A DNA stretch of 63,089 nucleotides, filler included. It is 5 parts of 5 records of this genome, joined end to end, with 100 filler letters (N's around TTAATTAATTAA, not from the genome) between each part and the next. Parts side by side here need not be neighbours in the genome. Positions count along the whole stretch, not along the records: positions 18,575 to 37,543 come from SRR31156797_2576; 4 more parts are not named here. One strand, written 5' to 3'. A program made the translations under genes and the position numbers. Below are positions 18,945 through 36,553 of the stretch, one piece after another; the stretch's first letter is position 1; each line of letters starts with the position of its first letter. The notes below the pieces were generated by a model. That model had not been told where the DNA came from and made no database searches. It saw only the letters and a program-made list of their open reading frames with translations.

Positions 18945-21074
18945 TTAGCTGAAGTCAAAGATAACTTTATGACTATCATCAAGTTTAAGCTTTGTTTCAA
19001 AAGCTTTCTTTGCCTTACTTTTCATTTTAAGTTTCTTTTTGGTAATTCCGTCTTTCAGGAGCTGCTTAACGGCAGTGACAGAAACTTTAGCACCGGCTGT
19101 TGTTTTCCAGATTGTAAACTGACAACCTTTTTCTTTCCACTGGTCGCAACCGTAAGCCTTTCCTTTATCGTAGATTTTACCACCGCAAGCAGGACAAACA
19201 CCGAGTGATTCAACTTCTTTTTTTTCCGGCTTCTGGGCGGTGTATGCAAACTCGGCTTCCTTCATTTCACCGATTCCAGCTTTTAGCTGCTCGTGGATCT
19301 CGTTCATAAAAGATTCATAATCATATTCACCGGATTCAATTTGCTTAAGTTTAAATTCCCATTCTCCGGTGAGTTCAGGCGAGGCGAGTACAGGCAAAAG
19401 ACTTTCAACGTTCTGGATCACGCCGCACCCTTTAGGGGTAGCGATAATGTGCTTACCTTTTCTTTCAATGTATCCACGATTCAAAAGTGTATCGATTATA
19501 CCGGAGCGTGTAGCGGGAGTTCCAAGGCCTTTTTCTTTTATGGCCTCGGCCACCTCTTCGTCTTCGACTTCTTTCCCGGCTGTCTCCATTGCACCCAGTA
19601 GAGATCTATCATTATAATTAGGTGGTGGGGTAGTCTTACCATCTTTCACGGTAATTTCAGTTACTGCTACGGTCTGCCCTTCCTCAAGATCCGGGAGAAT
19701 TGTATCATTGCCGATTTGATCCGGCTCGGCCTCCATCCATCCAGTTTCTTCAAAAATAGTCCCGTTGGTTTTGAAGCGGTTGATTTCAATTTCAATCCAT
19801 ACAGTTGTTTTCTTAAGCAGCGCGGGAGGCAAGAAAGCAGCTATAAACCGTCTAACGACCATTCCATAAATTTTCCATTCATCAGCTGACAGCTCGGCTT
19901 TGTCTGCGATTTGCGAGGTTGGAATAATGGCGTGGTGATCGGTTACTTTCTTTGAATTAACGCAAGTAAATTTTTTACCGCGTCCTTTTTCTTCTGTAAT
20001 CCGTGAAATGGCCTTTTCAGCTAAAGATTCAAAGTGAGCTGCTGCCGACTCCATATGAATTTCAACTTGGTTGTAAAGCTCATCAGAAAGATAACAGCTA
20101 TCAGTTCTAGGATACGTTAGAACTTTTTTACCACTGTAAAGTTCTTGAGCAAGTTTCAATGTCTTATCGGCGGTGAAACCGTATTTCTTGTTTGCTTCTT
20201 TCTGTAAAAGTATGAGGTCAAATAATTTTGGTGGGTTCACCTTGGAATCTTTTTTATCTACGACAATAACCGTTCCTAATTGCTTTTCACAAGCAAGCCT
20301 TACTGCTTCAGCTTCAGCTTTTTCTTTTAATCTGTCGTCACCTTTTCCATAAGGATCTCCATACCAATGGCATGTGAAAGGTTCATCACCGCCGGAAAGA
20401 AAAAGGCTATCTATAGTATAGAATTTTTCAGATTTGAAATTTTGAATTTCATTAAACCGATGAACTATAAACGCGAGAACCGGAGTCTGCACACGTCCAA
20501 TTGATGTTGTTTCACCTGTTTTGATGGAACAACAACGTGTGTAACTGATGCCATGAACATAATCTGCTTCAGAACGTGCGTTAGCGGCCCTTGCTACATT
20601 AATTTTGTCTTCCGCAGGAAGCAGATTTTTAAATGCTTTCTTAAGACTTGCTTCTGTAAGATCTTCAGGCCAAAGATGAGAGTAAGGTATATTTAGCTTT
20701 AAATAATCGTAGATTCTTTTAAAAATTAAAATTCCCTCGCGCCCTGCATCAGTGGCGCAAATAATCTCGCCAATATCATTCCTTTGAGTCAGTTTTTCAA
20801 TAATTTTGAATTGCCATTCACTTGTTTTTAAGACTTCCAATTTTAATTTTTTTGGGAAAATTGGAAGCTCTTCCATTATCCATTTCTTGGAATAATCACC
20901 TTGTTTTTCAACAGGTGCAATGTTTAACAAATGCCCCTGCGCCCATGTCACAATATCGTCATTACCTTCTAAATAACCTTTTTTTTCATCAGACTCTTTA
21001 AAGTCAATGTTTAAAGCATTAGCCATATCAAGCGCGGCTGATTTTTTTTCAGCAATAACTAAATTTTTAGTCAT
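18945..21074 (-). CDS. topB: DNA topoisomerase III, mobile-element type
   Basis: IAEKKS, WAQGHL, ATDAGREG, GRVQTP, LTYPRTDS, DHHAIIPT, GLGTPATR; C-terminal Zn ribbon CPACGG...YGC...CQFTIWK. Confidence 0.95.
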   Translation of the reverse strand: MTKNLVIAEKKSAALDMANALNIDFKESDEKKGYLEGNDDIVTWAQGHLLNIAPVEKQGDYSKKWIMEELPIFPKKLKLEVLKTSEWQFKIIEKLTQRNDIGEIICATDAGREGILIFKRIYDYLKLNIPYSHLWPEDLTEASLKKAFKNLLPAEDKINVARAANARSEADYVHGISYTRCCSIKTGETTSIGRVQTPVLAFIVHRFNEIQNFKSEKFYTIDSLFLSGGDEPFTCHWYGDPYGKGDDRLKEKAEAEAVRLACEKQLGTVIVVDKKDSKVNPPKLFDLILLQKEANKKYGFTADKTLKLAQELYSGKKVLTYPRTDSCYLSDELYNQVEIHMESAAAHFESLAEKAISRITEEKGRGKKFTCVNSKKVTDHHAIIPTSQIADKAELSADEWKIYGMVVRRFIAAFLPPALLKKTTVWIEIEINRFKTNGTIFEETGWMEAEPDQIGNDTILPDLEEGQTVAVTEITVKDGKTTPPPNYNDRSLLGAMETAGKEVEDEEVAEAIKEKGLGTPATRSGIIDTLLNRGYIERKGKHIIATPKGCGVIQNVESLLPVLASPELTGEWEFKLKQIESGEYDYESFMNEIHEQLKAGIGEMKEAEFAYTAQKPEKKEVESLGVCPACGGKIYDKGKAYGCDQWKEKGCQFTIWKTTAGAKVSVTAVKQLLKDGITKKKLKMKSKAKKAFETKLKLDDSHKVIFDFS

Positions 21075-21177
21075 AATTAATAAATCCTCCTTAATTATTT
21101 TTTTAAAATTACCTACTTTTTTATTTGAAAAATATAAAGATAAATCTTATACAAAAATCACTTTTAAGGGGAGTCTA

Positions 21178-21480
21178 ATGAACAAAAACAAAAAAAACAA
21201 AGAAAAAACGTTACTTGTGCAAATTCCTGAAAACTTGGCTGACGATGAAACAATTGAGTATTTAGGGTTTGGCTTGAGAGAGTTGTTTTTGAATTCAATA
21301 TCAAAAGAAACTCCACCGCCTGAAAAAAATAATCTTAAACAAGTTCGCTTGAAATTGGAGGGTAAAAATTTAGAATATTATCAAGAATTAGAATCTGAAT
21401 TTTCGTCAAAGAGGGCTTTAATTCGTACAGCTTTACGAATTGCAAAAGCATGTCCTAACACTCGTTATAAAATCCATTAG
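21178..21480 (+). CDS. Small putative DNA-binding protein (ribbon-helix-helix-like), first gene of the tra operon
   Basis: ATG at 21178 with GGGGAG RBS; 100 aa; strand-helix-helix pattern QVRLKL...SKRALIRTALR; 12 bp upstream of virB2. Confidence 0.55.
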   Translation: MNKNKKNKEKTLLVQIPENLADDETIEYLGFGLRELFLNSISKETPPPEKNNLKQVRLKLEGKNLEYYQELESEFSSKRALIRTALRIAKACPNTRYKIH

Positions 21481-21492
21481 GAGGGATTAAAA

Positions 21493-21780
21493 ATGAAAAA
21501 ACTTTTTGCAAAAATAAATCTGGCAATGTTGGCTGTAATGGCTTGGTCTGCAACCGCTTTCGGTGCTGATGACCCTTTTTCAAAAATGACTGATAAGGGA
21601 ACATCAATTCTCGAACAAGCCGAAGGGCCGATGGTTATCATTTGTGCAATTGCTATTGTCGCGGCAATGGTTGGCGGCTTGCTGGGGAAATTATCGCGCG
21701 GCTGGTGCATATCAATTATTGCATGTTCAATTATTGCCGGATCAGCAACAAGCATTGCTCAATTCCTCATTGGTAATTAA
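21493..21780 (+). CDS. virB2: VirB2/TrbC pilin
   Basis: Signal peptide, two hydrophobic helices, IIAGSATSIAQFL ending, position before virB3. Confidence 0.85.
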   Translation: MKKLFAKINLAMLAVMAWSATAFGADDPFSKMTDKGTSILEQAEGPMVIICAIAIVAAMVGGLLGKLSRGWCISIIACSIIAGSATSIAQFLIGN

Positions 21781-22073
21781 TGTCTGAAGAAAGCACTAAA
21801 AAACACACAGCGGTGATTTTTCCCGCATTATGGAAGCCCAACATGATTGTTGGGCTTCCTCAAGATTATTTAATGCTTGTTGTCATTTGCAGCTTAATCC
21901 CGTGTGTTATTAAAAAAAGTTTTTTGTACTTGTTTCTTGTAGCTCCTTTGATGTGGCTGCTTGGTTACATCTGGGCTAAAAGTGACCCTGAATTTTTGAC
22001 TGTTTGGCTTGTTAAGCTTTTTAAAGTCCAAACAACAAAAAGAAATAGCGAAGGAAATGATTACTATCCGTAG
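21780..22073 (+). CDS. virB3: VirB3
   Basis: ALWKPNMIVGLP, two TM segments, KSDPEF, terminal YYP. Confidence 0.85.
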   Translation: MSEESTKKHTAVIFPALWKPNMIVGLPQDYLMLVVICSLIPCVIKKSFLYLFLVAPLMWLLGYIWAKSDPEFLTVWLVKLFKVQTTKRNSEGNDYYP

Positions 22074-22082
22074 GGTTAAATT

Positions 22083-24428
22083 ATGAGTTTTTTAAGTCCA
22101 ATTTCAAATTTTATTTTACACTTAGCGGGTAGGAATTCAACAGGTTTGACCGTCCGTGATTTTACGCCAGTTGAAACAAAATGTCCGCTACTTGTAATTA
22201 ATGATAATTATTTGACCCGTTGTAAAGATGGGTCTGAATCAATTGTAATTGAATTAACAGGTAGAGATTACACTGGTTTAGATAAAGATGATTTGCATAA
22301 TTTTTTTATAGCGCGAAAAGCTTTTTTTGATCAGCTTCCTAGTGATATTTCTTGTTTAAGTCAGTCTCACCGTTCACAAATAAAAATCAATCTTTTTAAT
22401 GCTACTTATTCGAATAAATTTAGTTCTATTATCGCTGATAAATGGGCAAATAATTTCACAAAAAGTTTTCGAACTAAACATTATTTAGTGCTTACTCCTT
22501 CTTCTGCAAAAGGAGCACTTGCCGTGCTTCAATCCAGCGCGGATAAATTAACAGGATCACACAAAAAAAAGATAAAAGAAAAGCTTGAGAATGCTAAAAT
22601 AGATGCTCTTAACAGATTGAGTGCATACGGTCCCAGAGTTCTTGAAGGTGACGAGCTGGCTAGTTATTGGGCGAGGCTGCTAAATGGTAGAATTGTCAAA
22701 CATAAACTTGCTGAGAATGGCAAAATTGATGGATTACTTTCTGATACTAGAATTTTTTTTCCGAAAAATTCTAACCATGTTGTTTATGATGGACTGATTA
22801 GAAAATTCTCCTCTTTTGTATCTTTAAAACTTCCTCCTGAAGAATCTGGATATGAACTTTTAAATGCTTTGTTTTCTGTTCGCCGTGACATAAGCCTTTA
22901 TCAAACATTCTCTACATATGATAAAGATGTTGCACTTGCTATTGCTGAACATAGATTGGTTAACGAGGAACGTTTTCAAAAATCTTCAGAGCTATCAGTA
23001 AACCAGTTACAGGGGCTTTTAAAGCGCCTTCAGGCTGATGAGATTGATTTATTAGAGCATAGATTTGCTATTGAAATTTTTGGTAGATCTGAAGAAGAAT
23101 TAAAAGAAGCTATTCTTGATGTTCGTAGTGTTTTGGAGTCTCAACAGTACCGTATTTTTTTAGAAACAACGAATACCGAGGCTCTTTACTGGTCCCGTTT
23201 TCCCGGTATGCAGCAATTTAACAGCCGCAGCAGAAATATTACTTCTGAAAATTCTTCTCATTTCTGTACTTTCCCTACTGTTGGTGAAGGGTCGTCTAAA
23301 TGTTCATTTGGACCGTATCCCGTACAAGTTTTTAAGACTGACCAAGGGTCAGATTATTCTTTTATTTTTCACGAAAGCGAAGCACCACAAGCTTTAGGAC
23401 ATACTTTGATCATTGGGCAACCGGGATCAGGTAAAACGGTTCTATCTTCATTTCTGCAAAGTTCTTGCACAAAATTTTCTAACTTTCAAAATATGGCTTT
23501 TGACCGCCTGAATGGTCTTGAAATTGTAACTTTAGCACATGATGGTGAAGTTATTACCGCGAAAGATCTTGAAGGATTGGACATTAACCCATTCCAACTC
23601 CCAGACACACCAGAAAACAGAATGTTTTTAAGTGGCTGGGTAGCTGATCTTTTAAATGTAAATGATGAAAATGAAAAAGATATTATTTCAATTTCTATTT
23701 CAGAATTATTTGAACTACCCAAAGATCAAAGAAATTTGTCAAATTTGGCTCCTTCTTTTGGCCTCATGGAAAAGGGATCTCTTGGTCAACGATTAAAGAA
23801 ATGGCTTCCCGGTGGATCTAATGGTGCTTTCTTTTGTTCTGAAAAGGATGCTTTGAATTTTACAAATCCTTTTTTAACTTTTGATATGACAAGCATGCTA
23901 GATCGTCCTGACGTTTTAGCTCCACTATCTTCTTACATTTTTCACAGGATCAAAATTACAGATTTTCCCGGTGGTTTTCTGTTCTTTCTGGATGAGGCAC
24001 CTAACTATTTTAATCATCCAATTTTAGCCCCTCACATCCAAGTTGCCTTACTGGAGTGGCGAAAAAAGAACGGTGTTTTTCTTTTCGCCACCCAGACGGC
24101 AACAAGCATTTATAATTCTGATTTACGCGAAGCAGTTAAATCAGGTGTTGCTACCTATATTTTATTTCCTGACTCAAAAGCTGAGTTTAAAATTTATAAT
24201 GAATGTTTTGGCCTGACACATCAGGAATTTGAGTGGATTAAAGGCGTTCACCCTCGGCAATGCATGGTGAAACGTAAAACCGGAAACTCAGTAATTCTTA
24301 ATGTGGATCTGGCTTGTCTAAATAACTATCTCGGCTTTTTCGACTCCTCGGAAAAGTCGGTCAAAAAAGTCCGCGCACTACGCAAGGAGTACGGCAATGA
24401 ATGGAAAGAAGTTTATCGCAATTCTTAA
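22083..24428 (+). CDS. virB4: VirB4 ATPase
   Basis: GHTLIIGQPGSGKT (Walker A), INPFQL, FFLDEA (Walker B), WRKKNG, FATQ. Confidence 0.95.
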   Translation: MSFLSPISNFILHLAGRNSTGLTVRDFTPVETKCPLLVINDNYLTRCKDGSESIVIELTGRDYTGLDKDDLHNFFIARKAFFDQLPSDISCLSQSHRSQIKINLFNATYSNKFSSIIADKWANNFTKSFRTKHYLVLTPSSAKGALAVLQSSADKLTGSHKKKIKEKLENAKIDALNRLSAYGPRVLEGDELASYWARLLNGRIVKHKLAENGKIDGLLSDTRIFFPKNSNHVVYDGLIRKFSSFVSLKLPPEESGYELLNALFSVRRDISLYQTFSTYDKDVALAIAEHRLVNEERFQKSSELSVNQLQGLLKRLQADEIDLLEHRFAIEIFGRSEEELKEAILDVRSVLESQQYRIFLETTNTEALYWSRFPGMQQFNSRSRNITSENSSHFCTFPTVGEGSSKCSFGPYPVQVFKTDQGSDYSFIFHESEAPQALGHTLIIGQPGSGKTVLSSFLQSSCTKFSNFQNMAFDRLNGLEIVTLAHDGEVITAKDLEGLDINPFQLPDTPENRMFLSGWVADLLNVNDENEKDIISISISELFELPKDQRNLSNLAPSFGLMEKGSLGQRLKKWLPGGSNGAFFCSEKDALNFTNPFLTFDMTSMLDRPDVLAPLSSYIFHRIKITDFPGGFLFFLDEAPNYFNHPILAPHIQVALLEWRKKNGVFLFATQTATSIYNSDLREAVKSGVATYILFPDSKAEFKIYNECFGLTHQEFEWIKGVHPRQCMVKRKTGNSVILNVDLACLNNYLGFFDSSEKSVKKVRALRKEYGNEWKEVYRNS

Positions 24429-25254
24429 TTTAGTATTTTTTTTGTTTTCTTCTTCAGCGCAGGCCATGACCGTTAGTGACCCCGGTTCCTATGGCTATTT
24501 TGTACAACAGCTTTCAGAAGCAAAGCTTCAGTTAGCAGCAGCAAAAGAACAAATTGCTAACCAGATGCAAGAAATCAAAGTTCTGAATGACACGTACAAA
24601 ATGGCAACGGAACAGCTGAAGGAGCTGAACGATATTAAGGATCAGGTCAAAGGCTACTACGACCAAGGAAAAGCTTTTGTCGGCAAGATTAGAAGCATTA
24701 AAGCGGGCATTGAAGCAATCCCTTCAACCGTTATGGGCCGAGGCAAAGAAATGATGAGTCTGTTAGATGATATTGGCAATTTTACCGAGGCCGCTGATAT
24801 GCTGGATGGTATTTTTGGTGATCCACGCTCACCAAATTATGACCCGTGGCAGACATTAGGCCCTAAATACCAGCTACGCCAAAAAGGTTTAAAAGATTGT
24901 ATTGAACATTCTGAAAAACTTCTTGCCGGAATGAAAGATAAATTTGCAGGGCTTGAAGAGTTGATGAGTAAAATTGATGAAACCGAGAATATCAAGGAAG
25001 CGCAGGACTTAACAAACGTATTTCTCGCTTTAATTGCAAGTATTCTTAATGAGCAATTAGCTCTTGCGGCTCAAATTGGAGAATCGCAAGCCCTGCTTAA
25101 TTTCTCCGGTGTAAAAGATGGTGAATTAAAAGCCCAACAGGACCGAAGAGCGGAAAAGGTAAGTAAATATAATGAAGCCATTGAAGCCTATAAGAGTAAG
25201 GCCGGGGACACAGACAGTTCAGTAAAATCATTTATTGATATTGTTAACCAGTAG
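24397..25254 (+). CDS. virB5: VirB5/TrbJ-like minor pilin
   Basis: Signal peptide, MTVSDP, long Gln-rich helices, KIDETENIKEAQDL; between virB4 and virB6. Confidence 0.75.
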   Translation: MNGKKFIAILNLVFFLFSSSAQAMTVSDPGSYGYFVQQLSEAKLQLAAAKEQIANQMQEIKVLNDTYKMATEQLKELNDIKDQVKGYYDQGKAFVGKIRSIKAGIEAIPSTVMGRGKEMMSLLDDIGNFTEAADMLDGIFGDPRSPNYDPWQTLGPKYQLRQKGLKDCIEHSEKLLAGMKDKFAGLEELMSKIDETENIKEAQDLTNVFLALIASILNEQLALAAQIGESQALLNFSGVKDGELKAQQDRRAEKVSKYNEAIEAYKSKAGDTDSSVKSFIDIVNQ

Positions 25255-25262
25255 GTGAAATT

Positions 25263-26288
25263 ATGGAAATGGAAGCACTTTCACCTTTTGCCTTGATGGT
25301 TGTCAAAATCATGTTTCAATCTTTAAATCAATATTTAAATGAGATTGTTGTAATGATTCAAGCTAATTTTAAAGGTGCGGCAGTAGTTCTCACAACTATT
25401 TATATTATTTTTGTTTGCTATAAAGCTTTCTTTGGCAAAGCTTCAAAAGAAACTGTTATTGAATTTGCTGTTTCTGCTGCTGTTCTAGTCAGTATTGTTA
25501 GTTCTGTTATAGAAGGTGATTTTTATTTAGCGTGTGTAAAAGGATATGTTTCTTCTGTTTTGGAAACATGCAGTTGGTTTGCTTCGATAGGATCAGTTTC
25601 TAATTTTTTTGATATTTTTAGCAAGTTAGATGATGGTTTTGTTCTTATATATAAAACACTTTGGAATCAGGTCCCTAGTGGGTCTTTCTCCATGCTTACT
25701 GATCCAGAAGATTTTTTGGCTTATGGTTTTGCTATTCTTATTTTAATTTTTTCATACGGAATTATGTATTTTGCCTTTCTTTTACTGATCATAATCAGTG
25801 TCTTTACTTTATACATTCTTTTTACCCTTGGTATTCCTTGTGTTTTTTTAGCTTCATTTAAAGAAACAAGACATGTTTTCTGGGCTTGGTTCAAAGAAGT
25901 AATTAAATTCTCTATGGTGATGGTTTTTGCTTCTATAACCATGTCAATTTCTTACACGGGAATAGATTCAGCTTTAAAAATTTACGCAAATACAACAGTT
26001 GGCGTTGAAATTTTTAATTCTGGTTTTGCTGCTGTGGTTGCATGGTCAATCATCTGTTGGGGTTTGCTTTTAAAAAGCCCCGATTTGGCAGCAGCTTTAA
26101 CAGGTGGAACGCCCGGAGCTACCACAGGGATCGCGGCGGCAATGAGTATCGCCGGGGGTGGTAGTTTAATGGCTATGAAAATGGGTTTAGGTAAAACAGG
26201 GGGTGCGGCTGGAGCTGGGCTTAAAAAAGCTGGCGGGGCTGCGTATGGCTACGCAAAAGATAAATGGCTTAGAAGAGCAGGCGAATAA
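25263..26288 (+). CDS. virB6: VirB6/TrbL polytopic membrane protein
   Basis: Multiple TM segments, FKETRHVFWAW, PDLAAALTGG, Gly/Ala-rich tail. Confidence 0.88.
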   Translation: MEMEALSPFALMVVKIMFQSLNQYLNEIVVMIQANFKGAAVVLTTIYIIFVCYKAFFGKASKETVIEFAVSAAVLVSIVSSVIEGDFYLACVKGYVSSVLETCSWFASIGSVSNFFDIFSKLDDGFVLIYKTLWNQVPSGSFSMLTDPEDFLAYGFAILILIFSYGIMYFAFLLLIIISVFTLYILFTLGIPCVFLASFKETRHVFWAWFKEVIKFSMVMVFASITMSISYTGIDSALKIYANTTVGVEIFNSGFAAVVAWSIICWGLLLKSPDLAAALTGGTPGATTGIAAAMSIAGGGSLMAMKMGLGKTGGAAGAGLKKAGGAAYGYAKDKWLRRAGE

Positions 26289-26300
26289 GGAGTTTTTTTT

Positions 26301-26909
26301 ATGCCAGAACAATCATGGTTAAATACAAATACAGTTAATAGACGGCTATGCTGGGTAATCATTTTTCTCGTTTTTATCATTGGTGCTATGGCCTTTAGCT
26401 ATACTTTAATTCTTCCATTGAAAGAAATAGAAGTGCGATATGTTGAATTTTCATCTGATGGAAATCATTTTGTTCAAGTAATTTCTGCAAATGATGTACT
26501 AACAACAAATGATACATTGTTGAGCGTCACAGTTAGAGATTATGTTGTTTCTCGTGAGACTGTAGATAAAATTACAAGTGATGAAAGGCTTAATAAAGTT
26601 CTCCATATGAGTAGTAGTGAAGTTTTTGAACGTTTCAAGCTTTCTAATAGAAAAATTATTATGGAAGGTGAGAACGGTTTCAAAAGATCCATTGAGGTTA
26701 TCCGAGATAACCGACTTGGAAAAGGAATTCATGAAGTTGCTTTTAAAACTCATGATAGAGCACCAATGTCAATAGATGCGACAACTACTAAATGGAAAGC
26801 AATTTTACATTATCGGGTTCTTCCTAAAAAAACTGTCAAATTTGAAGATAGTTTTAAAAACCCGACGAATATTGAAATTGTAAACTATACAATTTCAAAG
26901 GAGAAATAA
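26301..26909 (+). CDS. virB8: VirB8
   Basis: One TM then LPLKE, YVVSRE, NPTNIEIVNY. Confidence 0.85.
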   Translation: MPEQSWLNTNTVNRRLCWVIIFLVFIIGAMAFSYTLILPLKEIEVRYVEFSSDGNHFVQVISANDVLTTNDTLLSVTVRDYVVSRETVDKITSDERLNKVLHMSSSEVFERFKLSNRKIIMEGENGFKRSIEVIRDNRLGKGIHEVAFKTHDRAPMSIDATTTKWKAILHYRVLPKKTVKFEDSFKNPTNIEIVNYTISKEK

Positions 26910-26910
26910 A

Positions 26911-27552
26911 ATGAAGAACCTTTGTAGATTCTTTGTCTTCATTCTTTTTTCTGCGGCTTTAATTCTTTTGGCTGTTCCGGCTTTCTCGGCTGTTCAGGAT
27001 CTGAATAGCCAAGGCCAGCAGTTCAATTATGAAGGTGATGCGCCGCTTGATAACAAGGTGAGTTTAAATGTTGTTCAAAATGCTTGGAATGAATCTAAAC
27101 CATCACAGGGCATTAAAAAATTTACATATAAGCAAAGCAATGTCCTTAAAATATCCACTAGAGTTTATATGAAAACTTCGCTCGTTCTTCCTGAAGGTGA
27201 AATTATTGAAGGTTGGACAACTGGAGATAATTTTAATTTTAAGTTTGAACAAATTCCTACTCGTTCAAATATTTTACAAGCATGGCCTATTTACCCTGAA
27301 GCAGACACCAATCTGCAAATTTTCGGGAAGTCCGGCAATATCTATGTTTTTTACATTCGCGCTTACAAGGTCAAATCAAACCATATTCCTGACTTAGTTG
27401 TTTATCTGAATGATCCATATTTCCCCGGTATTATAAAAGATGAACCGAAAAAGGTGGAAGTGATTTCGGAAACTTCCACACTTGCCGGGGAATACCTTCG
27501 TAAATTGAACCTTCCTTCACCTGAAAAGCTGAATTTTGACTACGTTTTTTAA
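26911..27552 (+). CDS. virB9: VirB9/TrbG N-terminal domain only
   Basis: Signal peptide; TSLVLPEGE, GD, TNLQIFGKSGNIYVF; stops right after LNFDYVF, where the C-terminal domain normally begins. Confidence 0.85.
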   Translation: MKNLCRFFVFILFSAALILLAVPAFSAVQDLNSQGQQFNYEGDAPLDNKVSLNVVQNAWNESKPSQGIKKFTYKQSNVLKISTRVYMKTSLVLPEGEIIEGWTTGDNFNFKFEQIPTRSNILQAWPIYPEADTNLQIFGKSGNIYVFYIRAYKVKSNHIPDLVVYLNDPYFPGIIKDEPKKVEVISETSTLAGEYLRKLNLPSPEKLNFDYVF

Positions 27553-27563
27553 GGATAAGCATC

Positions 27564-27959
27564 ATGAAAAAAACATCCATTTTATTACTGATTCTATTTT
27601 GTCTTTGTTCCGGTTGTGTGGCCCGTAAAACGGGAGGAGTTAGAACAAATAGTAATGACCTTGTTCCCTCTCCCTGTGCTGATCTCGAAATACAAGGTGA
27701 TGTTTCATTGAAGCCTATTATGGTTTTTGATGATGGAAACTGGACCTATTTTCAAATGAACAAGCAGGACAATTTTGACGGTAAAAAGGTTCCTGCCATT
27801 TATGAAATACAAGACAAATTTGAAACTCCGGCAAATGTTCGCGTTGTCGGTTCTACTCTCATAGCTGAAAGTATCGGCACGAGCTGGGCCTTGCGTAGTG
27901 GTGATAAATTTTTTTGTGTCCGCAAGAAAAGTCTTGTTCAAAGTCAGAGGAATAACTAA
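27564..27959 (+). CDS. VirB7-like lipoprotein fused to the VirB9 C-terminal domain
   Basis: Own RBS (AAGGA) and ATG; lipobox CSGC; SPCA motif; then GDVSLKPIMVFDDGNWTYF...PAIY...NVRVVG...LRSGDKFFC. Confidence 0.8.
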   Translation: MKKTSILLLILFCLCSGCVARKTGGVRTNSNDLVPSPCADLEIQGDVSLKPIMVFDDGNWTYFQMNKQDNFDGKKVPAIYEIQDKFETPANVRVVGSTLIAESIGTSWALRSGDKFFCVRKKSLVQSQRNN

Positions 27960-29054
27960 ATGACTGGTCCTCCTAAAATAGGTGCTGCCAGCTCAGGTAT
28001 GGGCAAAGGGGCAATCATAGCAATTGTGGTTGTAATGACTCTTTTTATTGGTGGTCTTGCTTTTATGGTTATCTCTGCTCGTTCCAATAGGAACGATGTG
28101 GAAGAAATCAGTTATCAAGGTCCTGTCCATGATAACAGCGAAGCATTTTTTGAAATTCCTGAAGAGCCGAAACTAGTTGAGGAACTAAAAATAGAAACAC
28201 CTCCACCACCGCCTCCGGTGGAAGTAAAAGAAACGCCTCCACCACCGCCTCCACCGCCTGTAAAAATGGTTGAATTACCTTCTCTTAATAGGCTGCTTAA
28301 GACTGTGCCGGATAAAAAAGAATCCGTAGCGGATAGAATTAATAATCAAAGACGTATGGCGGCAAGCTCCAGCTTCAATAATAAACGCAAGAAATCAGAT
28401 CCGGGATGGATCAACAAACAGGATAACTGGAATGAGTCTAAAACAGAGTCAAGTTATCCGGTTGATATGAGCCGTGTAATTCCAATGAATAAGTATATTC
28501 CGGCTATTTTGGTCAATGATGTTGTTAGTGAGCTTGGTTCAAAAGTTACCGCAGTTATTCAACAAAATGTCTATGGTGGTCATGGTCGTTTTGTTTTGAT
28601 TCCCGCAGGTTCTTCAGCGATTGGTTTTTTTGCTCCATTGAAGAAAGCCGGGGATACAAGATTACGGATTATATGGCACCGGATTATTACCCCTGAGGGA
28701 ATTAACATTCATTGCGGTAATGCTGAAATGGCTGACGCAATGGGTAGATCCGGCATTACTGGTGAGATTGACAGCAAGGTCTTTGACCGAATCGGCTTAC
28801 CTTTAATGATTTCAGGAATTCAAAGTATCATGGCGTATGCAATGCCTGTCGGAAACCGTAACCAGCAAGTTGTCATTGAAAATTTTGGTCAAGGTGTTTC
28901 GACACTGAGCCAAAAAGTTTTCGATGCAAATATAAACATGAAACCTATTGTAAAAATTCCTGCGGCTTCAAGGATTTTGATTAGTCCGATGAAAGATATT
29001 TGGTTTCCAAAGCCAAAACGAGGACAAATTCAATTATCTGCGGTTGTCTCTTAA
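27960..29054 (+). CDS. virB10: VirB10/TrbI
   Basis: N-terminal TM, Pro-rich linker, IPAILVND, VLIPAGS, IIWHRIITPEG, DAMGRSG, IPAASRI. Confidence 0.93.
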   Translation: MTGPPKIGAASSGMGKGAIIAIVVVMTLFIGGLAFMVISARSNRNDVEEISYQGPVHDNSEAFFEIPEEPKLVEELKIETPPPPPPVEVKETPPPPPPPPVKMVELPSLNRLLKTVPDKKESVADRINNQRRMAASSSFNNKRKKSDPGWINKQDNWNESKTESSYPVDMSRVIPMNKYIPAILVNDVVSELGSKVTAVIQQNVYGGHGRFVLIPAGSSAIGFFAPLKKAGDTRLRIIWHRIITPEGINIHCGNAEMADAMGRSGITGEIDSKVFDRIGLPLMISGIQSIMAYAMPVGNRNQQVVIENFGQGVSTLSQKVFDANINMKPIVKIPAASRILISPMKDIWFPKPKRGQIQLSAVVS

Positions 29055-29277
29055 AACGAATTTTGTTCGTGCCGATCGCAAAAATAAGCCGGCTAATAGT
29101 GCTTATTGAGGGTTGGCCATAGCCGATCTGATCAAGCTTCAGGAGAATTTTTAATTTCCTGCCGAATAAAATTCAAAATCGGGCTTTGCCCGACACATTG
29201 AAACGTAGCCTTAAGCGGAGTGACCCGGCCCCGGTTCTTTTACCCAGAAGGGGCCATAATTATAAAGGAGTGAAATT

Positions 29278-31239
29278 ATGAAAGCAGTCAAAAATTATTT
29301 AATTTATGCCCTTTTTGTTTCTGCCATTGTGCTTGCTTTGTTTTCTGCCTTTGTATGCCTTGATTGCCCCTCGGCGCATGCTAACGAGGAGGATGGAGTT
29401 TTGCTTGAACTGACAAAACCCATCATTGTTAAACCTCCTGAAGATCAGTCGCGGAACAGTCAAGCCGTTTTTGCTGACCTTCAGGAGGATGCGGTTAAGC
29501 TCGGCTTGGATCGTATTTCTATTATGGGGTCAATTTCTTATAAAAAGAAGGGTACCAAGAAAATCAACAGCAAGGATGTTGATTTCTATGTTGTGAATAT
29601 CACATGGCATTCACTCGCCAGTGATTCAAAAACTGAATCCATATCACCTCCGCTTAAATCTGCATTGCAGACAGGCGATAAACGAATAGAAGTAGGGCAA
29701 GAGGTTTGGGCGCGCGGACACCTTCAGGCCCTGAAAAGTGCGCTTCAGCGACTTAAAACCGAAAAGAAAAAGCAGGACTCACCACAGATTAAAGAGGAAG
29801 ACACAGACACCAGCTCAACCGGATCAACTGTTTCTGATCTTGGCAGCGGCAATTCTGGTTCATGGTGGGATTCTTCTGATTCTGGGTCTTCCTCTTCTGA
29901 TAGCAAAGAAGCCACAACAACGGCTGCTGTTAATACCCTTGTTGAACCTTGTCCCGACTTTGTAGACGAAAACGTTTTAAAAGTTTTTGAACAGACTAAA
30001 AAAACAGTCGGTACAACAGCTGGTGTCTGCACTAATACCGGGACGGAATATAAAATTCAAAAGGAAACCGGGATTTGTGGTATCCAGTTCGATTTTGAAA
30101 CAGGCAAAGCCTACAAAATGGAACAATGGTATTATCTCCGTGGAACCGGAGGGAATCAGACTGAAGGAGGCCAGACCCAAAAAATCAATATTGGTGGATG
30201 CCGTAAATCTGAGACAGATTACAGTCTGTATGAAACTGAGAATAGTTGCACCCCGACCATTACCGAGGATCAGGTTATTCCTTTGTACCGTATGGCCTAC
30301 AAGAACAGTGAAGGCAATGAAAAATTTGCTTCAGAGTGTGCCGCTAAAGACGGGGAGCCTATCGCTCTTCAGGTTGAGTATTGTGGATACGATCACGATA
30401 AAATCAACAATGTTTCCTATGCAACTGGACGTAAATATTACGTCAAAAATGATGAAAAAATTTATGTCGGTGAATGCCTCCGGTTGACCGACAAAAGTTT
30501 TCCTCATGAGTTTGAAGAAACTGGCTGGGCCATGAATGACGATGAAAAATATGGTCAAATAATGGCAAAACGTTTTTTCTTTCTTAATGCGACAAAAAAA
30601 CAATTTGTTTCAAATGATTCTGAACCCCACGGTGTCCCGATTGCATATCTTGTTAATGCAACGTTTGAAAAAAAGTTTCAGACTGCAAAAAATGCTAACT
30701 TTACCGCTCCTGCATCAGGCACGTATAATTTAACTTTAATCGGTAGTGGTGATGCTACGGGCTATTCTTCTAATGGTTTTTTTAAAAACACATTCGTTTA
30801 TCTGTCAGCAGACACAGACTATTTAATTGAGATTGGGCGGAATAGTACCAACACTAAAATTTTCCAAGATTCTCAATTAATAGCTAGTTCAGAAGGTGGA
30901 CACAATGACTCAGGCCCCCCATATATTGTAAATAACACACCTAATGGTTTTCAAGGTGCAACAGGTTATACGAACTATCCAACCCTTGATGGATACGAAA
31001 CCGCAAAATCTCCATATTATGAATTGTTGTCTGGTAGTTGGGGTTGGTATTCTTGTTCGGCTCGTCCTAACGGTGCAGGTTATGGTGGTGGTTTTGGTAG
31101 TCTTGTTTGTAATACTGCGGAAATCAGTCGCAGTGATAAATTTAAATATCACCCCGGTATTGGTGGTTCTGGTTTTTTTGAAGCTCTTTGGATGGCTATT
31201 AAATATGTCCGCCCTGATGGATCTATTTATTCTGAATAA
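29278..31239 (+). CDS. Exported Cys-repeat protein with C-terminal Gly-rich domain (adhesin-like), function unknown
   Basis: AAGGAG RBS; signal peptide; Ser-rich linker; 4-5 repeats of about 45 aa with Cys pairs; FTAPASGTYNLTLIGSG...GAGYGGG...GIGGSG. Confidence 0.75.
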   Translation: MKAVKNYLIYALFVSAIVLALFSAFVCLDCPSAHANEEDGVLLELTKPIIVKPPEDQSRNSQAVFADLQEDAVKLGLDRISIMGSISYKKKGTKKINSKDVDFYVVNITWHSLASDSKTESISPPLKSALQTGDKRIEVGQEVWARGHLQALKSALQRLKTEKKKQDSPQIKEEDTDTSSTGSTVSDLGSGNSGSWWDSSDSGSSSSDSKEATTTAAVNTLVEPCPDFVDENVLKVFEQTKKTVGTTAGVCTNTGTEYKIQKETGICGIQFDFETGKAYKMEQWYYLRGTGGNQTEGGQTQKINIGGCRKSETDYSLYETENSCTPTITEDQVIPLYRMAYKNSEGNEKFASECAAKDGEPIALQVEYCGYDHDKINNVSYATGRKYYVKNDEKIYVGECLRLTDKSFPHEFEETGWAMNDDEKYGQIMAKRFFFLNATKKQFVSNDSEPHGVPIAYLVNATFEKKFQTAKNANFTAPASGTYNLTLIGSGDATGYSSNGFFKNTFVYLSADTDYLIEIGRNSTNTKIFQDSQLIASSEGGHNDSGPPYIVNNTPNGFQGATGYTNYPTLDGYETAKSPYYELLSGSWGWYSCSARPNGAGYGGGFGSLVCNTAEISRSDKFKYHPGIGGSGFFEALWMAIKYVRPDGSIYSE

Positions 31240-31244
31240 TTATA

Positions 31245-31284
31245 AGCCGAGTTGGAGCAATGCGCCCCAGCTCGGCTATTTTTT
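31245..31284 (+). terminator. Terminator-like hairpin between the adhesin-like gene and virB11
   Basis: AGCCGAGTTGG...CCAGCTCGGCT followed by ATTTTTT; the virB11 RBS follows immediately. Confidence 0.65.
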
Positions 31285-31295
31285 GGAGTTTATAT

Positions 31296-32201
31296 ATGGC
31301 TATTTCTGCACTCTTAAAAAATTCACTTAAGCCCTTTGAAAAGTATTTCAAAATCAAAGGAGCTAAAGAAATTTCTATCAATAAGCCGGGAGAGGTTTGG
31401 ATAGAAACCTATGACGGGTGGACTGTAAAGAAAGAACCTGAATTTACGCTGGAATTTTTGCAAAGATTTGCAAAACATTTAGCAACTGAAGTGGGCAAAA
31501 CATATAATTTAGAGAATCCAATTATATCAACTTCTATTCCTCCTTATGGATACAGAATTATGATTATTGGATTCGACAATTGTATATCACAATTTGGTTG
31601 CTCAATAAGAATAGGAAAAGCTGAAAGGTATCCTATTAAATCTTATTTTGGTGGAGATAAGAAAAAAGCTGATAAATTCATAGAACATTTAGCTGGTAAT
31701 ACTTCTATGCTTATTTCGGGTGGTACAGGATCAGGTAAGACAACCTTTATGAATAGTCTTCTTGTTCACATTCCTCACGATCAACGAGTTATTACAATTG
31801 AGGATTCAGCTGAATTAATTGTTGATCAACCTAATTGTCTAGGTCTGCTGAAACATAAATTTGGAACAAATATTTCTTACAGCATGATTCTTGATTGCGT
31901 CCGGCGCTTACGTCCAGACAAAATACTTTTAGGTGAAATGGATAGCGATAATGCTTTTTCATTTTTAGATGCTGCAAACTCTGGGCACGGTGGATCTCTT
32001 ACAACCATTCATGCATCTAGTCCTGTTCTTGCCGCTCATGCACTGGCTTCAAAGGTAAGCGAAAGCAAAGACGGTTTAGACGAAAAAGGGGCTTTAAAAA
32101 AGGTTGTACAAACAATTGATGTGATTGCTCAAATTTATAATGACCGGAAAAAAAATACTTATTCAATTGAATATGAATTTGTTAATGAAATGGGGTTATA
32201 A
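31296..32201 (+). CDS. virB11: VirB11 ATPase
   Basis: Likely start MAISALL (31296); EISINKPGEVW, SGGTGSGKTT, ITIEDSAEL, LRPDKILLGE, SGHGGSLTTIHA. Confidence 0.95.
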   Translation: MAISALLKNSLKPFEKYFKIKGAKEISINKPGEVWIETYDGWTVKKEPEFTLEFLQRFAKHLATEVGKTYNLENPIISTSIPPYGYRIMIIGFDNCISQFGCSIRIGKAERYPIKSYFGGDKKKADKFIEHLAGNTSMLISGGTGSGKTTFMNSLLVHIPHDQRVITIEDSAELIVDQPNCLGLLKHKFGTNISYSMILDCVRRLRPDKILLGEMDSDNAFSFLDAANSGHGGSLTTIHASSPVLAAHALASKVSESKDGLDEKGALKKVVQTIDVIAQIYNDRKKNTYSIEYEFVNEMGL

Positions 32202-33790
32202 TGAAAGCTTTAGTTCTTGATTTAATATTTGTCCTTCTGGTCTTGTTTGGCCTGATCTGTGGCTTGTATTTCGGTGGTGTTAATTTTCATCTGGGCATGA
32301 CCTTAAATGATTTTCCCGTATGGACATATAAGGCCGCCCTTTTCGCGCTGACACTATTAGCGGTTATGGTTTTGTTTAATCCTCTTCGTAAAGACAAAGA
32401 CCTTTACGGCGGGGCGCACTGGGCCACTGAAAGCGAAATCAAAAAAATGAAATTACGCACCGAGGATAATGGAATGATCCTCGGTGTACATAAAAATAAG
32501 TATCTGCGCATGGAAGAGCCTTTAAGCGTTCTTGTTTATGCGCCTCCCGGCTCCGGTAAGACAGCGGCTATTATCATCCCCTCACTAATTGCATCGGGCA
32601 ATAGTGTTATTGTCCATGATCCCAAAGGTGAGCTTTACGATAAGACCGGAGCGCACCGGGGAGAATTTAGCAATGTAATCAAATTTGCCCCGGCTGAAAG
32701 TGGCTCTTGTCAGTGGAACCCACTTTCAAGAAAGGAACTGCCGGAAAAATGGTCTGACCCTGAAGCAACCGAAGCAGAGAAAGAAAAAAGTTGGTCACAA
32801 ATTGAAGTTCATGTTTCCCGACTTGCAGCGGCACAGCTCCCTTTGCCCAAATCAGGCCCAGAACATTGGATGCGTAACGCTAGAACACTTTTTGAATTTT
32901 GGACTTTGTACCTGATACATAAGAACGGAGAAACTTCTATACCTGAAATGCTGAAAACGTCACTTGATGGTGATACCCGTGAATTGATTGAAGCTGTTCT
33001 TGATGAAGGTGACGAGCTGCCGGAAAAAGTTCGGTTATACGCTAATGGTCTTATGTCTAAAGCTGATCAGGAATTTGGTTCTATATTTTCGACTTTTCAG
33101 AGTTCATTAGAGGTTTTTTTAGATCCTTATGTATCTGAAAATTTGTCTTCCTCTGATTTTTGTTTTTCGGATCTCCGGAAGGAATGCACATCTATCTATC
33201 TCATGGTTGCAAACCATGATCAGGGACGACTTAGAACGCTGTTAGCGACCTTCTTTGAAGTTGCTACGGTGTGCCTGATTTCCAAGGAACCAGAGGAAAA
33301 GGATTGTTCTGTTACTCTTTATCTTGATGAGTTTGTAAGACTCGGCAAAATGGAGGAAGTTATCAACCTTCCGGCTATTTCCCGTTCATATCGGGCTAAC
33401 ACTGTATATGTAGTTCAGAGCGTAAACCAGCTTGACGATATATACACGCCTTCAGGAGCTGAGAAGCTACGCCAAGCATGCGCGTATCTTTGTGTGTTCG
33501 CCCAGAACGAACCCAAGTTCGCTAAAAATATTAGCGAGTCCATAGGAAACAAGACCCGCAAGAAGCGTTCTAAATCACAGCAGGATGTAAAAATATTTGG
33601 TTCTGAATCCGTTAGTGATGAGGGTGTACCGCTGATTCTTCCGCAGCAAATACAATCATTGCAGTTCGGCAAGCTGCTTGTGCTTGCCCAGAACAACTTT
33701 GAAAATCCCGTGCTTGCTGACGCTGCTTTTTGGTTTAAAGATCCTGTTGTTAAACCCTATGTAGAGAAATGCTTAAATTCTCATGCTTAA
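32201..33790 (+). CDS. virD4: VirD4/TraG type IV coupling protein
   Basis: Two N-terminal TMs, YGGAHWA, APPGSGKT, HDPKGEL, WNPL, LDEF, VQSVNQL. Confidence 0.95.
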   Translation: MKALVLDLIFVLLVLFGLICGLYFGGVNFHLGMTLNDFPVWTYKAALFALTLLAVMVLFNPLRKDKDLYGGAHWATESEIKKMKLRTEDNGMILGVHKNKYLRMEEPLSVLVYAPPGSGKTAAIIIPSLIASGNSVIVHDPKGELYDKTGAHRGEFSNVIKFAPAESGSCQWNPLSRKELPEKWSDPEATEAEKEKSWSQIEVHVSRLAAAQLPLPKSGPEHWMRNARTLFEFWTLYLIHKNGETSIPEMLKTSLDGDTRELIEAVLDEGDELPEKVRLYANGLMSKADQEFGSIFSTFQSSLEVFLDPYVSENLSSSDFCFSDLRKECTSIYLMVANHDQGRLRTLLATFFEVATVCLISKEPEEKDCSVTLYLDEFVRLGKMEEVINLPAISRSYRANTVYVVQSVNQLDDIYTPSGAEKLRQACAYLCVFAQNEPKFAKNISESIGNKTRKKRSKSQQDVKIFGSESVSDEGVPLILPQQIQSLQFGKLLVLAQNNFENPVLADAAFWFKDPVVKPYVEKCLNSHA

Positions 33791-34266
33791 CGCTGTTGTT
33801 AGTCCTATGCTCTTCAGTATGCTTTGCTGACGAGCTGGGCTTTCAGGCAGCCGCTAAAATGTACCGTGTTGATTCGTTCAAACTCCGTGCTATTTCTTAT
33901 GTCGAATCAAGGCATAATCCTAAAGCTGTGAACCGGAATAAAAATGGCTCCAAGGATCTCGGACACATGCAAATCAATAATAAGGTGTGGTCTAAATCCC
34001 TTGATGGTCACTATGAGCAACTAGACGATTTTCCGAAGTACTGCACACAAGTCGGCGCGTGGATCTTCCGGCAGTGCGCGGATAGATACCCTGCTAGTGT
34101 TTGGGACCAGTTTGCATGTTATCATGCCGGAATTGGATACACTGACGCTAAACGCCTAGTCGTTACCGACCCCGGCAACCGGGAAAAGTGGAAGAAGAAA
34201 GAAAGGCTCGGCTTGATCTATGCCAACAAGATTTATAGAGCTATGAAGATTTTGAATGGTCAATAA
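33769..34266 (+). CDS. Lytic transglycosylase (VirB1/TrbN-like)
   Basis: AISYVES (catalytic Glu), AVNRNKNGSKDLGHMQIN, ACYHAG. Confidence 0.9.
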   Translation: MLKFSCLTLLLVLCSSVCFADELGFQAAAKMYRVDSFKLRAISYVESRHNPKAVNRNKNGSKDLGHMQINNKVWSKSLDGHYEQLDDFPKYCTQVGAWIFRQCADRYPASVWDQFACYHAGIGYTDAKRLVVTDPGNREKWKKKERLGLIYANKIYRAMKILNGQ

Positions 34267-34435
34267 AATGTTCGGACTATGGAATCTGAATAAAGTTCTA
34301 AAAAGGCGTTGCCGGTCGATATGGTTTTATGAACTTTATTCGGTACAAGTTCAATTTTCATGCTTCAGCTCGTGCGGATCTGATCAGGCCGGGAGTCCAT
34401 GCCCCCCTCATCGAGGAGTTACCGAGACTCATAAC

Positions 34436-34491
34436 AGAAGAAAGTTCGTAAAAAGGTGGTGCCAGGGCAACCCTTTTACGAACTTTCTTCT
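34436..34491. terminator. Long hairpin, probable bidirectional terminator between convergent units
   Basis: Perfect 18-bp inverted repeat AGAAGAAAGTTCGTAAAA (34436-34453) / TTTTACGAACTTTCTTCT (34474-34491). Confidence 0.75.
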
Positions 34492-34508
34492 TTCTTAAAT
34501 TTAACAAT

Positions 34509-34829
34509 CTACTGGACTAAAGCGCATTCTATTTTTGTTTTTCCAGCTTTCCGATTAGCATAAGACTTTTGAGCATCCCGTTTAAGTTGAACTTGATAAA
34601 GTTTGTTCGCAAATTTTTCTATCTCAATTTTAGTTATCTTTTCATCTGATAAAATTTCTTTGTATAATTCCAGAAGTTCAAAGTATACTTTGTACTCTTT
34701 TTTATATTCTTTGATTTTTTGGTTTAGCTCGGCATTCGTTACGACTTTGGAATCATCACAGTGTGCAAGCATTGGATTGCTAAAGCCAGCGAGAACAATC
34801 AAACTGAGCGTGAGTATTAATTTTTTCAT
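34509..34829 (-). CDS. Small secreted helical hypothetical protein
   Basis: Start MKKLILTL (ATG 34829) with AAGGA RBS; signal peptide. Confidence 0.7.
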   Translation of the reverse strand: MKKLILTLSLIVLAGFSNPMLAHCDDSKVVTNAELNQKIKEYKKEYKVYFELLELYKEILSDEKITKIEIEKFANKLYQVQLKRDAQKSYANRKAGKTKIECALVQ

Positions 34830-34998
34830 TTTTCCTTTCTTTTGTTTATTCCCCGTTCCCACATGAATTTTGATTTTTTATTTGTATTAAAGCGAGGGTA
34901 GAAATTTAGTTCTTCACCCTCCCCCGCTAATCCTTAAATATTTGACATATCCGCTAAGAGGTTTTGTCTAATCTGTTGCTGCATGGCTTCATTGTCGT

Positions 34999-35027
34999 CC
35001 TCTCCCATCCAGCGCACCGCGGCAGCT
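34999..35027. repeat. 29-bp direct repeat, copy 1
   Basis: CCTCTCCCATCCAGCGCACCGCGGCAGCT; one mismatch to 35465-35493. Confidence 0.9.
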
Positions 35028-35493: not shown

Positions 35494-35505
35494 CCGGCAA
35501 CATTC

Positions 35506-36540: not shown

Positions 36541-36553
36541 ACGTGCACCTCTT

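Follow-up and report, generated by a model that had tools for sequence, protein, structure and literature searches.

VirB9 in two genes: an N-terminal protein and a probable VirB7-like lipoprotein chain in a VirB-like secretion gene cluster

The outer-membrane core of type IV secretion systems (T4SSs) in Gram-negative bacteria is regarded as an invariant set of VirB7, VirB9 and VirB10. In the T4SS gene cluster of the window analyzed here, a stretch of 63,089 nucleotides made of parts of five genome records joined end to end, this core has probably undergone a conserved repartition: VirB9 is divided between two adjacent open reading frames (ORFs), the first of which (ORF1) encodes the N-terminal domain (NTD), the linker and the first strand (B1) of the C-terminal domain (CTD), while the second (ORF2) would encode a VirB7 of the ComB7/Rickettsia type fused in frame to the remaining CTD strands, B2-B9. 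The two-gene layout is conserved in other loci, the N-terminus of ORF2 is like that of stand-alone lipoproteins found at the VirB7 position, ORF1 and ORF2 are modeled with the VirB9 NTD and CTD folds, and there is no other virB7 in the island. This is apparently a rare, conserved and undescribed variant of the T4SS outer-membrane core. No published split VirB9 or VirB7-VirB9 fusion was found in the full-text literature (subscription journals not covered), the nearest being a paper on Rickettsia VirB9b (PMC2653234), and a 2025 nomenclature review gives VirB7, VirB9 and VirB10 as three subunits (PMC12857230).

As a natural variant, the arrangement would show that the covalent link between NTD and CTD is dispensable and that the VirB7-VirB9 CTD pair can act as one unit, and the first CTD strand may be the connector between layers. 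It also bears on the question raised by R388, in which one protein makes both a 16-mer I-layer and a 14-mer O-layer, a constraint that a split system removes. On the practical side, the VirB9 whole-protein model TIGR02781 scores the two halves at 35.9 and 47.3 bits, far under its cut-off of 217.7, and curated VirB7 models miss the fused part, so such systems will be annotated as incomplete.

Two genes in place of virB9

The features that carry the argument are the following:

26289..26300, plus strand: 12-bp gap at the usual virB7 position, too small for a gene (ORF coordinates)
26911..27552, plus strand: ORF1, VirB9 N-terminal protein, 213 residues (CagX profile 2-121 of 198)
27487..27549, plus strand: ORF1 tail, residues 193-213 (GEYLRKLNLPSPEKLNFDYVF), conserved linker motif and B1 strand of the canonical VirB9 CTD (conservation, construct starts)
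27545..27550, plus strand: run of six T's (T6) overlapping the ORF1 stop codon (sequence)
27551..27555, plus strand: Shine-Dalgarno (SD)-like AAGGA, 8 nt ahead of the ORF2 ATG (sequence)
27564..27959, plus strand: ORF2, VirB7::VirB9-CTD lipoprotein with predicted lipidation, 131 residues (CagX profile 121-197 of 198)
27564..27680, plus strand: VirB7-like part of ORF2, with signal peptide, lipobox CSG/C (Cys18), 19-residue tether and S36-P37-C38-A39 (SPC-lipoprotein profile, family alignment)
27687..27929, plus strand: VirB9 CTD beta-sandwich of ORF2, strands B2-B9, residues 42-122, with Cys118 at nt 27915-27917 (AlphaFold2, alignment)

Residues 67-212 of ORF1 match the first part of the Pfam CagX profile (PF03524, E 6.2e-11) and residues 42-121 of ORF2 match the rest (E 1e-13). 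With the NCBIfam VirB9 model TIGR02781, the two cover positions 25-131 and 172-247 of 248. ORF1 ends in ...LNFDYVF at the stop codon 27550-27552 and ORF2 has a separate start at 27564, so that the two VirB9 domains are not in one polypeptide, and neither the ORF scan nor the Pfam scan of the window operon gave a second CagX-type ORF. An initial annotation, made from the sequence alone, had described ORF1 as the N-terminal part of VirB9 only and ORF2 as the second half, which the profile matches bear out, and the motifs it quoted (LNFDYVF-stop, AAGGA, CSGC, SPCA, FFC, and T6 at 27545-27550) are all where it had placed them.

ORF1 consists of a putative Sec signal peptide (cleavage read by eye after AFS, residue 26), an NTD core (~52-170), and the linker with the first CTD strand. 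In the AlphaFold2 model the core is very confident, with a predicted local distance difference test score (pLDDT) of 96-98, and the tail (171-213) is low-confidence (53-73). The top Foldseek match of the model is the I-layer NTD of R388 TrwF/VirB9 (7o3t_B, E 1.4e-9, root-mean-square deviation (rmsd) 2.3 over 108 columns), and it also matches chain 7spb_C1 of the F-plasmid outer-membrane core complex (OMCC; E 2e-6). ORF2 begins MKKTSILLLILFCLCSGC, carries SPCA at residues 36-39 followed by LEIQGDVSLKPIMVFDDGNWTYF, and has FFC at 116-118. Its model, built from 34 aligned sequences, has a pLDDT of 87.3 and eight strands between residues 53 and 120; the tether (21-30) is flexible (pLDDT 58) and the SPC region (31-40) confident (88). 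Here the top match is the O-layer CTD of R388 TrwF/VirB9 (7o3j_B, E 6.4e-5, rmsd 1.8 over 82 columns), followed by other VirB9 CTDs, from X. citri (6gyb_B and 2n01) and pKM101 (2ofq and 3jqo).

Where exactly the protein is cut can be read from solved CTD constructs. In a profile search of PDB sequences these start at the family segment 'lnfeYki' (2n01_B from residue 16, 2ofq_A from residue 5), whose counterpart in the window is the LNFDYVF end of ORF1, and the CTD of TraO has nine strands, B1-B9 (PMC2653234), where ORF2 has eight. By this comparison the split point is one strand inside the structural CTD, with NTD, linker and B1 in ORF1, and VirB7 and B2-B9 in ORF2. The split is thus not exactly at the domain boundary, where it had been placed earlier; the Pfam profile does divide between the two ORFs.

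Judged from the contigs compared, this layout is real and conserved in other loci. A word-index search returned a 131-residue protein with 82% identity to ORF2 that shares its start, its lipobox and its SPC motif. When 1.84 billion cluster representatives were searched exhaustively with HMMER, 239 matched at E <= 0.001, and among the 150 matches listed there are at least five short proteins of 116-155 residues (82, 49, 43, 41 and 35% identity) aligned from about residue 5 of ORF2. All five, which belong to five 50%-identity clusters, have a signal peptide, a lipobox Cys, S[PE]C, the CTD and a C-terminal Cys. The count leaves aside P0029, P0033, P0041, P0069, P0092, P0124, P0131, P0135 and P0148, which start inside the CTD; P0061, P0065, P0106 and P0146 are fragments lacking a lipoprotein start. 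Scanning genome and metagenome contigs with an alignment of the short proteins brought up 80 related loci; the CTD frame was short and closed with its own start in three (L002, L022 and L029), closed with at least 211 codons in 66, and ran off the contig end in 11. The three split loci (40-43% identity) have the two-gene layout of the window, and in all four cases an ORF ending just after [LI]NxxY stands directly upstream of ORF2. The upstream tails read ...INYNYSIKGGEKYVQE in L002, ...INYNYKIKGGKKYEQK in L022 and ...INSDYSFNFQGN in L029, each followed by the stop codon; in L029 the last 45 codons of this ORF alone are present on the contig. L002, from a metagenome-assembled genome of Desulfobacteraceae, has CagX positions 2-125 and 123-197 in two ORFs (Pfam), and its gene order is that of the window: virB8, virB9N, lipoprotein-CTD, virB10, large unknown protein, virB11 and virD4.

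Other collections gave intact forms or nothing. A search with ORF2 alone found no close relatives in reference genomes, and the viral contigs searched had no match. In a plasmid collection, tblastn matched 448 records, all below 60% identity; the best 30 of them show no split form, and their annotated features are full-length VirB9/TrbG. A word-index search with ORF1 returned three proteins, all full-length (307-337 residues); the NTD partner expected for P0001 was not among them.

The two halves and the two layers

Two tyrosines of the ORF1 tail, Tyr195 of EYLR and Tyr211 of B1, hardly vary across 31 sequences from split and intact forms. A model of the complex between mature ORF1 (27-213) and mature ORF2 (18-131) gave an interaction score (ipSAE) of 0.62 (0.61-0.64 in three runs), a mark that 51 of 78 solved complexes attained, as did 2 of 108 mismatched pairs; all three controls scored 0.00. 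Contact agreement between runs was at least 62% and partner pLDDT at least 71. The confident interface joins residues 201-202 and 206-213 of ORF1, i.e., the KLNFDYVF tail, to two stretches of ORF2, 50-58 (strand B2) and 117-125 (around Cys118, in the last strand). The score is best taken as a sign of likeness, not of binding. It is a tentative proposal, with slightly less than an even chance in our estimation, that ORF1 donates its B1 strand in trans to ORF2, as the model and the conservation of the tail suggest.

Since the linker and the first CTD strand remain with ORF1 and the model docks this tail on ORF2, the I- and O-layers are probably still coupled, though non-covalently. The initial annotation had gone further and supposed that the split would uncouple them, which is too strong, given that linker and strand are kept in all four split loci. 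Full uncoupling would mean that ORF1 and ORF2 do not bind, that VirB10 is the sole bridge between the layers, and that the ORF1 tail is a leftover or binds something else. Such a state is possible, though on balance unlikely. It draws on the fact that in solved OMCCs the VirB9 NTD and CTD form separate rings joined by a linker, and that R388 has 16 NTDs and 14 CTDs, two CTDs being left out (PMC9259494). Moreover, the tail is low-confidence when ORF1 is folded alone, and the docking may reflect the intact fold as learned by the predictor. What speaks for coupling is that [LI]NxxY, with its nearly invariant Tyr, and the EYLR-type linker persist in four of four split loci at an overall identity of only ~33-36%, and that the complex scores far above its controls through an interface that is exactly the ORF1 tail.

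Under the proposed repartition, assembly might run as follows. After export, ORF2 would receive a lipid at Cys18 and be directed to the outer membrane, where its VirB7-like arm would fold back on its own sandwich and be pinned there by a Cys38-Cys118 bond, replacing the inter-chain bond between Agrobacterium VirB7 Cys24 and VirB9 Cys262. Together with the VirB10 CTD, ORF2 would build the O-layer. ORF1 would build the I-layer ring, its tail (L201-F213) joining the ORF2 sandwich as the missing first strand. With a separate gene product for each ring, the two could differ in copy number. In R388, by comparison, the O-layer is described as a 14-mer and the I-layer as a 16-mer, with two VirB9 CTDs outside the O-layer (PMC9259494).

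The predicted lipoprotein end of ORF2, its cysteines and the junction

The usual virB7 position, between virB6 (which ends at 26288) and virB8 (which starts at 26301), is indeed only 12 bp wide, as first annotated. No small stand-alone VirB7 is encoded there; the VirB7-like part is the N-terminus of ORF2, the sole candidate in a lipobox scan of the window from 18 to 38 kb. Lipidation by signal peptidase II is predicted from the MKK-hydrophobic-CSG/C pattern, the invariant Cys18 and a profile match. C18, S36 and C38 are invariant in six of six family members, and the second Cys is flanked by SP (S36-P37-C38), as in the ComB7 and Rickettsia types. A '[KI]KSP'-Cys motif is described for ComB7 of H. 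pylori and C. jejuni and for Rickettsia VirB7, in agreement with the initial annotation, which had named SPC-type motifs in Helicobacter ComB7-like proteins; the same paper homologizes this Cys with the A. tumefaciens VirB7 Cys that is disulfide-bonded to VirB9 Cys262 (PMC2653234).

Loci with an intact virB9 close to ORF2 supply the stand-alone counterpart: small lipoprotein ORFs of 40-90 residues in which the lipobox Cys is followed, after 11-21 residues, by (K)SPC, for example ...LSGCAFLPEKSPTKLEKSPCACN... and ...LAGCSSTAQNMKKSPCW... Nine such lipoproteins were collected, all encoded just upstream of virB8. Seven (L004, L021, L023, L027, L028, L032 and L034) occupy the canonical virB7 slot, with TrbL/VirB6 before and VirB8 after them (Pfam); in the other two, the preceding gene is a VirB4 fragment (L033) or an ORF without Pfam match (L025). 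A profile of the nine, searched unfiltered against 663 ORFs of at least 30 residues from the window and the three other split loci, put the window's ORF2 at the top (27.9 bits, E 4e-8), in an alignment that spans residues 1-43 and takes in SPCA. Its homologues in L029, L002 and L022 came second, third and fifth; two ordinary lipoproteins of the window owed their 13.8 and 10.9 bits to the signal peptide alone. The distance from the lipid Cys to the SPC Cys is 12-19 residues in split forms, within the range of the stand-alone ones. In L032 (3756-5230) and L034 (3703-5255), both metagenomic, the SPC lipoprotein gene is separated from virB9 by two VirB8-like genes in a row, and the VirB7-type lipoproteins are longer (78-90 residues), with a further Cys. 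In L002, the virB6-virB8 interval (3889-4531) holds a 76-residue membrane-protein ORF without Cys and a 115-residue ORF, neither of them with a lipobox.

The other cysteine of the proposed pair, Cys118 (FFCVR), does not vary in the 34 sequences aligned, and its counterpart in VirB9 of the A. vitis Ti plasmid is Cys262, 30 residues from the end of that 292-residue protein. In Agrobacterium, Cys262 forms an inter-chain disulfide with VirB7 Cys24 (PMC2653234). Since both cysteines of ORF2 are in one chain, an intrachain Cys38-Cys118 bond is the natural expectation from the sequence. An intact frame with 1.5 kb or more of upstream sequence is available in 53 loci; 43 of them have a Cys in the Cys118 column and 23 of these have an SPC-type lipoprotein ORF within 1.7 kb upstream, while none of the 10 loci without this Cys has one. 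This co-occurrence is what a disulfide pair would predict, but the count is biased, because one retrieval pattern required a C-terminal Cys and many rows are near-copies. L032 and L034 fall among the 20 loci with none within 1.7 kb because their SPC lipoprotein lies further upstream. Two of the 10 (L017 and L077) encode a lipoprotein that carries P[VI]N and lacks a second Cys. Separately, the annotated VirB7 of the A. vitis Ti plasmid (L081, 1064-1231) has no second Cys after its lipobox while the VirB9 keeps Cys262, so the pair is not obligatory even in Agrobacterium-type systems.

Besides this bias, several points weigh against the repartition as proposed. Residues 1-45 of ORF2 match no VirB7-type model of NCBIfam or Pfam at E <= 10, and the stand-alone forms themselves give only sub-threshold LvhB7/VirB7 matches (14-17 bits in five of nine for LvhB7 NF041529, cut-off 70). 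The P[ILV]NK motif by which VirB7 inserts into a pocket of the VirB9 CTD is absent from ORF2 residues 19-45. The Cys at lipobox position -3 is unusual, and the pairing of Cys38 with Cys118 is read from sequence, not from a distance in the model. The complex was folded without supplied alignments and, because its inputs are the halves of a split gene, may merely replay the intramolecular VirB9 CTD fold; in addition, ORF2's own weakly B1-like stretch, DLEIQ, could occupy the B1 place. Finally, the T6 run was verified on contigs of the probable source run, not on reads.

The first two of these points would suit an ORF2 N-terminus that does not derive from VirB7 at all: VirB7 would have been lost, and an orphan CTD gene would have gained a generic lipoprotein signal peptide, with SPC arising by convergence. 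VirB7 is in any case too short and too variable for firm homology. This account is nevertheless quite improbable, as the stand-alone profile aligns through SPCA at 27.9 bits, where lipoprotein signals alone give 10.9-13.8, S36 and C38 do not vary in the family, the spacing of the two cysteines falls inside the stand-alone range, and the partner Cys is conserved. The failure of curated models fits the published remark that VirB7 proteins are barely alignable (PMC2653234), and P[ILV]NK is also missing from the SPC-type stand-alone forms, being present in the L017 and L077 candidates, whose VirB9 lacks the Cys. The VirB7 origin of the ORF2 N-terminus, and with it the initial reading of a VirB7-like lipoprotein fused to the VirB9 CTD beside a separate NTD protein, thus holds up on the conserved layout, the stand-alone profile match, the lack of another virB7 in the island and the place of Cys118 in the Cys262 column.

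There remains the junction itself. From 27540 on, the frame of ORF2 is free of stop codons; with T7 in place of T6 the two frames would run together, and a slip within T6, by programmed -1 frameshifting or transcriptional slippage, would likewise join them into a functional full-length VirB9 with a junction peptide reading ...DYVFLRISIMKK... Of this earlier suggestion the open frame across the run stands, but slippage is highly improbable. The T run is found at the window junction and not at those of L002, L022 and L029. A spacer of 11 nt with ORF2 at +2 in the window becomes a 2-nt spacer, also at +2, in L029 and a 14-nt overlap at +1 in L002 and L022, and ORF2 has its own SD-like motif and ATG in all four. 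A fused product would, moreover, carry a signal peptide and a lipobox buried in mid-chain. These differing junctions, with the SD-like motif at each ORF2 and the T run in the window only, make an error, a recent pseudogene or a conserved programmed frameshift very unlikely. That the split comes from faulty assembly or sequencing, or marks a recent pseudogene, is scarcely credible, even with a homopolymer at the junction: a Logan contig (the work of a second assembler, on probably the same reads and hence not independent data) covers 26800-28100 as a single identical piece without indel, T6 unchanged, at a word depth of 385, nothing in intact VirB9 corresponds to the roughly 40 codons that encode signal peptide, lipobox and tether, the 82%-identical homologue and more distant relatives begin alike, and the split is kept across loci.

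Known systems, origin and genomic setting

Compared with the canonical VirB7/VirB9/VirB10 core (TraN/TraO/TraF of pKM101, TrwH/TrwF/TrwE of R388, and that of A. tumefaciens), the window shares the P-type operon order, the I-layer NTD fold (ORF1), the O-layer CTD fold (ORF2), a predicted lipid anchor and a Cys pair equivalent to Cys24-Cys262. It differs in that VirB9 is two polypeptides, no gene lies between virB6 and virB8, P[ILV]NK is missing, and VirB7 is the N-terminus of the CTD chain instead of a free lipoprotein of 30-45 residues; the disulfide, if formed, would be intramolecular. Rickettsia VirB9b (RvhB9b) has a complete NTD with a signal peptide and a CTD reduced to strand B1 (PMC2653234); ORF1, with its complete NTD and a CTD stopping after B1, is the same module. 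In Rickettsia, however, this protein is a paralogue that coexists with a full-length VirB9a and with VirB7 as a protein of its own, whereas the window cluster has no full-length VirB9, and the rest of the CTD comes from the VirB7-fused lipoprotein. ComB7 of H. pylori and C. jejuni and Rickettsia VirB7 resemble the ORF2 N-terminus in their lipobox, tether and SP-Cys proposed for a disulfide, with a partner VirB9/ComB9 that keeps its C-terminal Cys (PMC2653234). They are stand-alone proteins, and the likeness of motif rests on the text of that paper, not on an alignment. The F-type TraV/TraK/TraB core also apportions VirB9-like and VirB7-like parts differently, with mismatched ring symmetry (PMC8770708), but it is made of other gene families (MPF-F) and its lipoprotein has no fused VirB9 CTD.

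How often the split arose was approached with two trees. One, of the CTD only (71 rows and 86 columns, from proteins numbered up to P0060 of 230-480 residues plus 15 loci), is unresolved: the split label needs five changes, of which the starred branches force only one. The other joins VirB8, VirB9 and VirB10 from the 17 loci holding all three genes (833 columns, with L044 representing the near-copies L040-L050). It groups the window with L004, whose VirB9 is intact, with support 92/92, and unites window and L002 in 0 of 200 bootstrap trees; an approximately unbiased test does not reject that union (p 0.145, delta log-likelihood 5.76). In a bolder view, which we think rather improbable, [NTD + linker + B1] and [VirB7 + B2-B9] would be natural, separable assembly modules joined by one donated beta-strand, the repartition would have arisen more than once, and Rickettsia VirB9b would be the same NTD+B1 plug. 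If so, the I- and O-layers could differ in copy number by design, and structural and assembly work would have, in ORF2, a minimal O-layer subunit already made as a single chain where there are usually two. The stretch from SPC to GD is short and variable in the ORF2 family, and in some members faintly B1-like (DLEIQGD in the window, RFDWLKGD in P0005); as a speculation, such stretches are what one would expect had the split arisen from two copies of virB9 whose deletions overlapped.

The cluster around the two genes is VirB-like by Pfam and contains:

Start 21493, plus strand: virB2 (P-type virB operon)
Start 21780, plus strand: virB3 (P-type virB operon)
Start 22083, plus strand: virB4 (P-type virB operon)
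Start 24397, plus strand: virB5 (P-type virB operon)
25263..26288, plus strand: virB6, TrbL/VirB6 family (Pfam PF04610, E 2.6e-14)
26301..26909, plus strand: virB8 (Pfam PF04335, E 2.5e-18)
27960..29054, plus strand: virB10, TrbI family, its start abutting the ORF2 stop (Pfam PF03743, E 6.4e-36)
29278..31239, plus strand: 653-residue protein without Pfam match, between virB10 and virB11 (ORF scan)
Start 31260, plus strand: virB11 (P-type virB operon)
Start 32201, plus strand: virD4 (P-type virB operon)
Start 33769, plus strand: lytic transglycosylase (P-type virB operon)

The usual conjugation type of Bacteroidota differs from the P-type. The stretch 18945-34266 looks like a VirB-type (P-type) island acquired by a Bacteroidota chromosome, of a Salinivirgaceae-like member of the Bacteroidales. 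Its flanks carry carAB, tRNA synthetases and parts of a type IX secretion system (T9SS), namely PorV, PorP/SprF and cargo with CHU_C and Por_Secre_tail. The seryl-tRNA synthetase of the flank has 95-97% identity to metagenomic proteins, the named one (95%) being from Salinivirgaceae, order Bacteroidales. The G+C content is 35-38% in the T4SS stretch and 41-47% in the left flank. A topoisomerase gene on the minus strand (18945-21074) forms the left edge of the island. No relaxase or integrase was recognized among the scanned ORFs, and an Rfam scan of the window gave zero matches.

The 653-residue protein has a hydrophobic segment near its N-terminus, and phmmer finds relatives in the same slot in L001, L002, L004, L027, L028, L060 and L061; large Pfam-negative ORFs also come after virB10 in L025 and L033. 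It seems to be an accessory component conserved in this subfamily of T4SSs. To the right of the island, about 3.5 kb (34300-37800) contains short ORFs only (100-126 residues, on both strands), without convincing Pfam match. Beyond these, a 158-residue ORF (37796-38272) is the C-terminal end alone, with cadherin and CHU_C T9SS signal, of a normally far larger adhesin, and may be a gene disrupted at the right border of the island.

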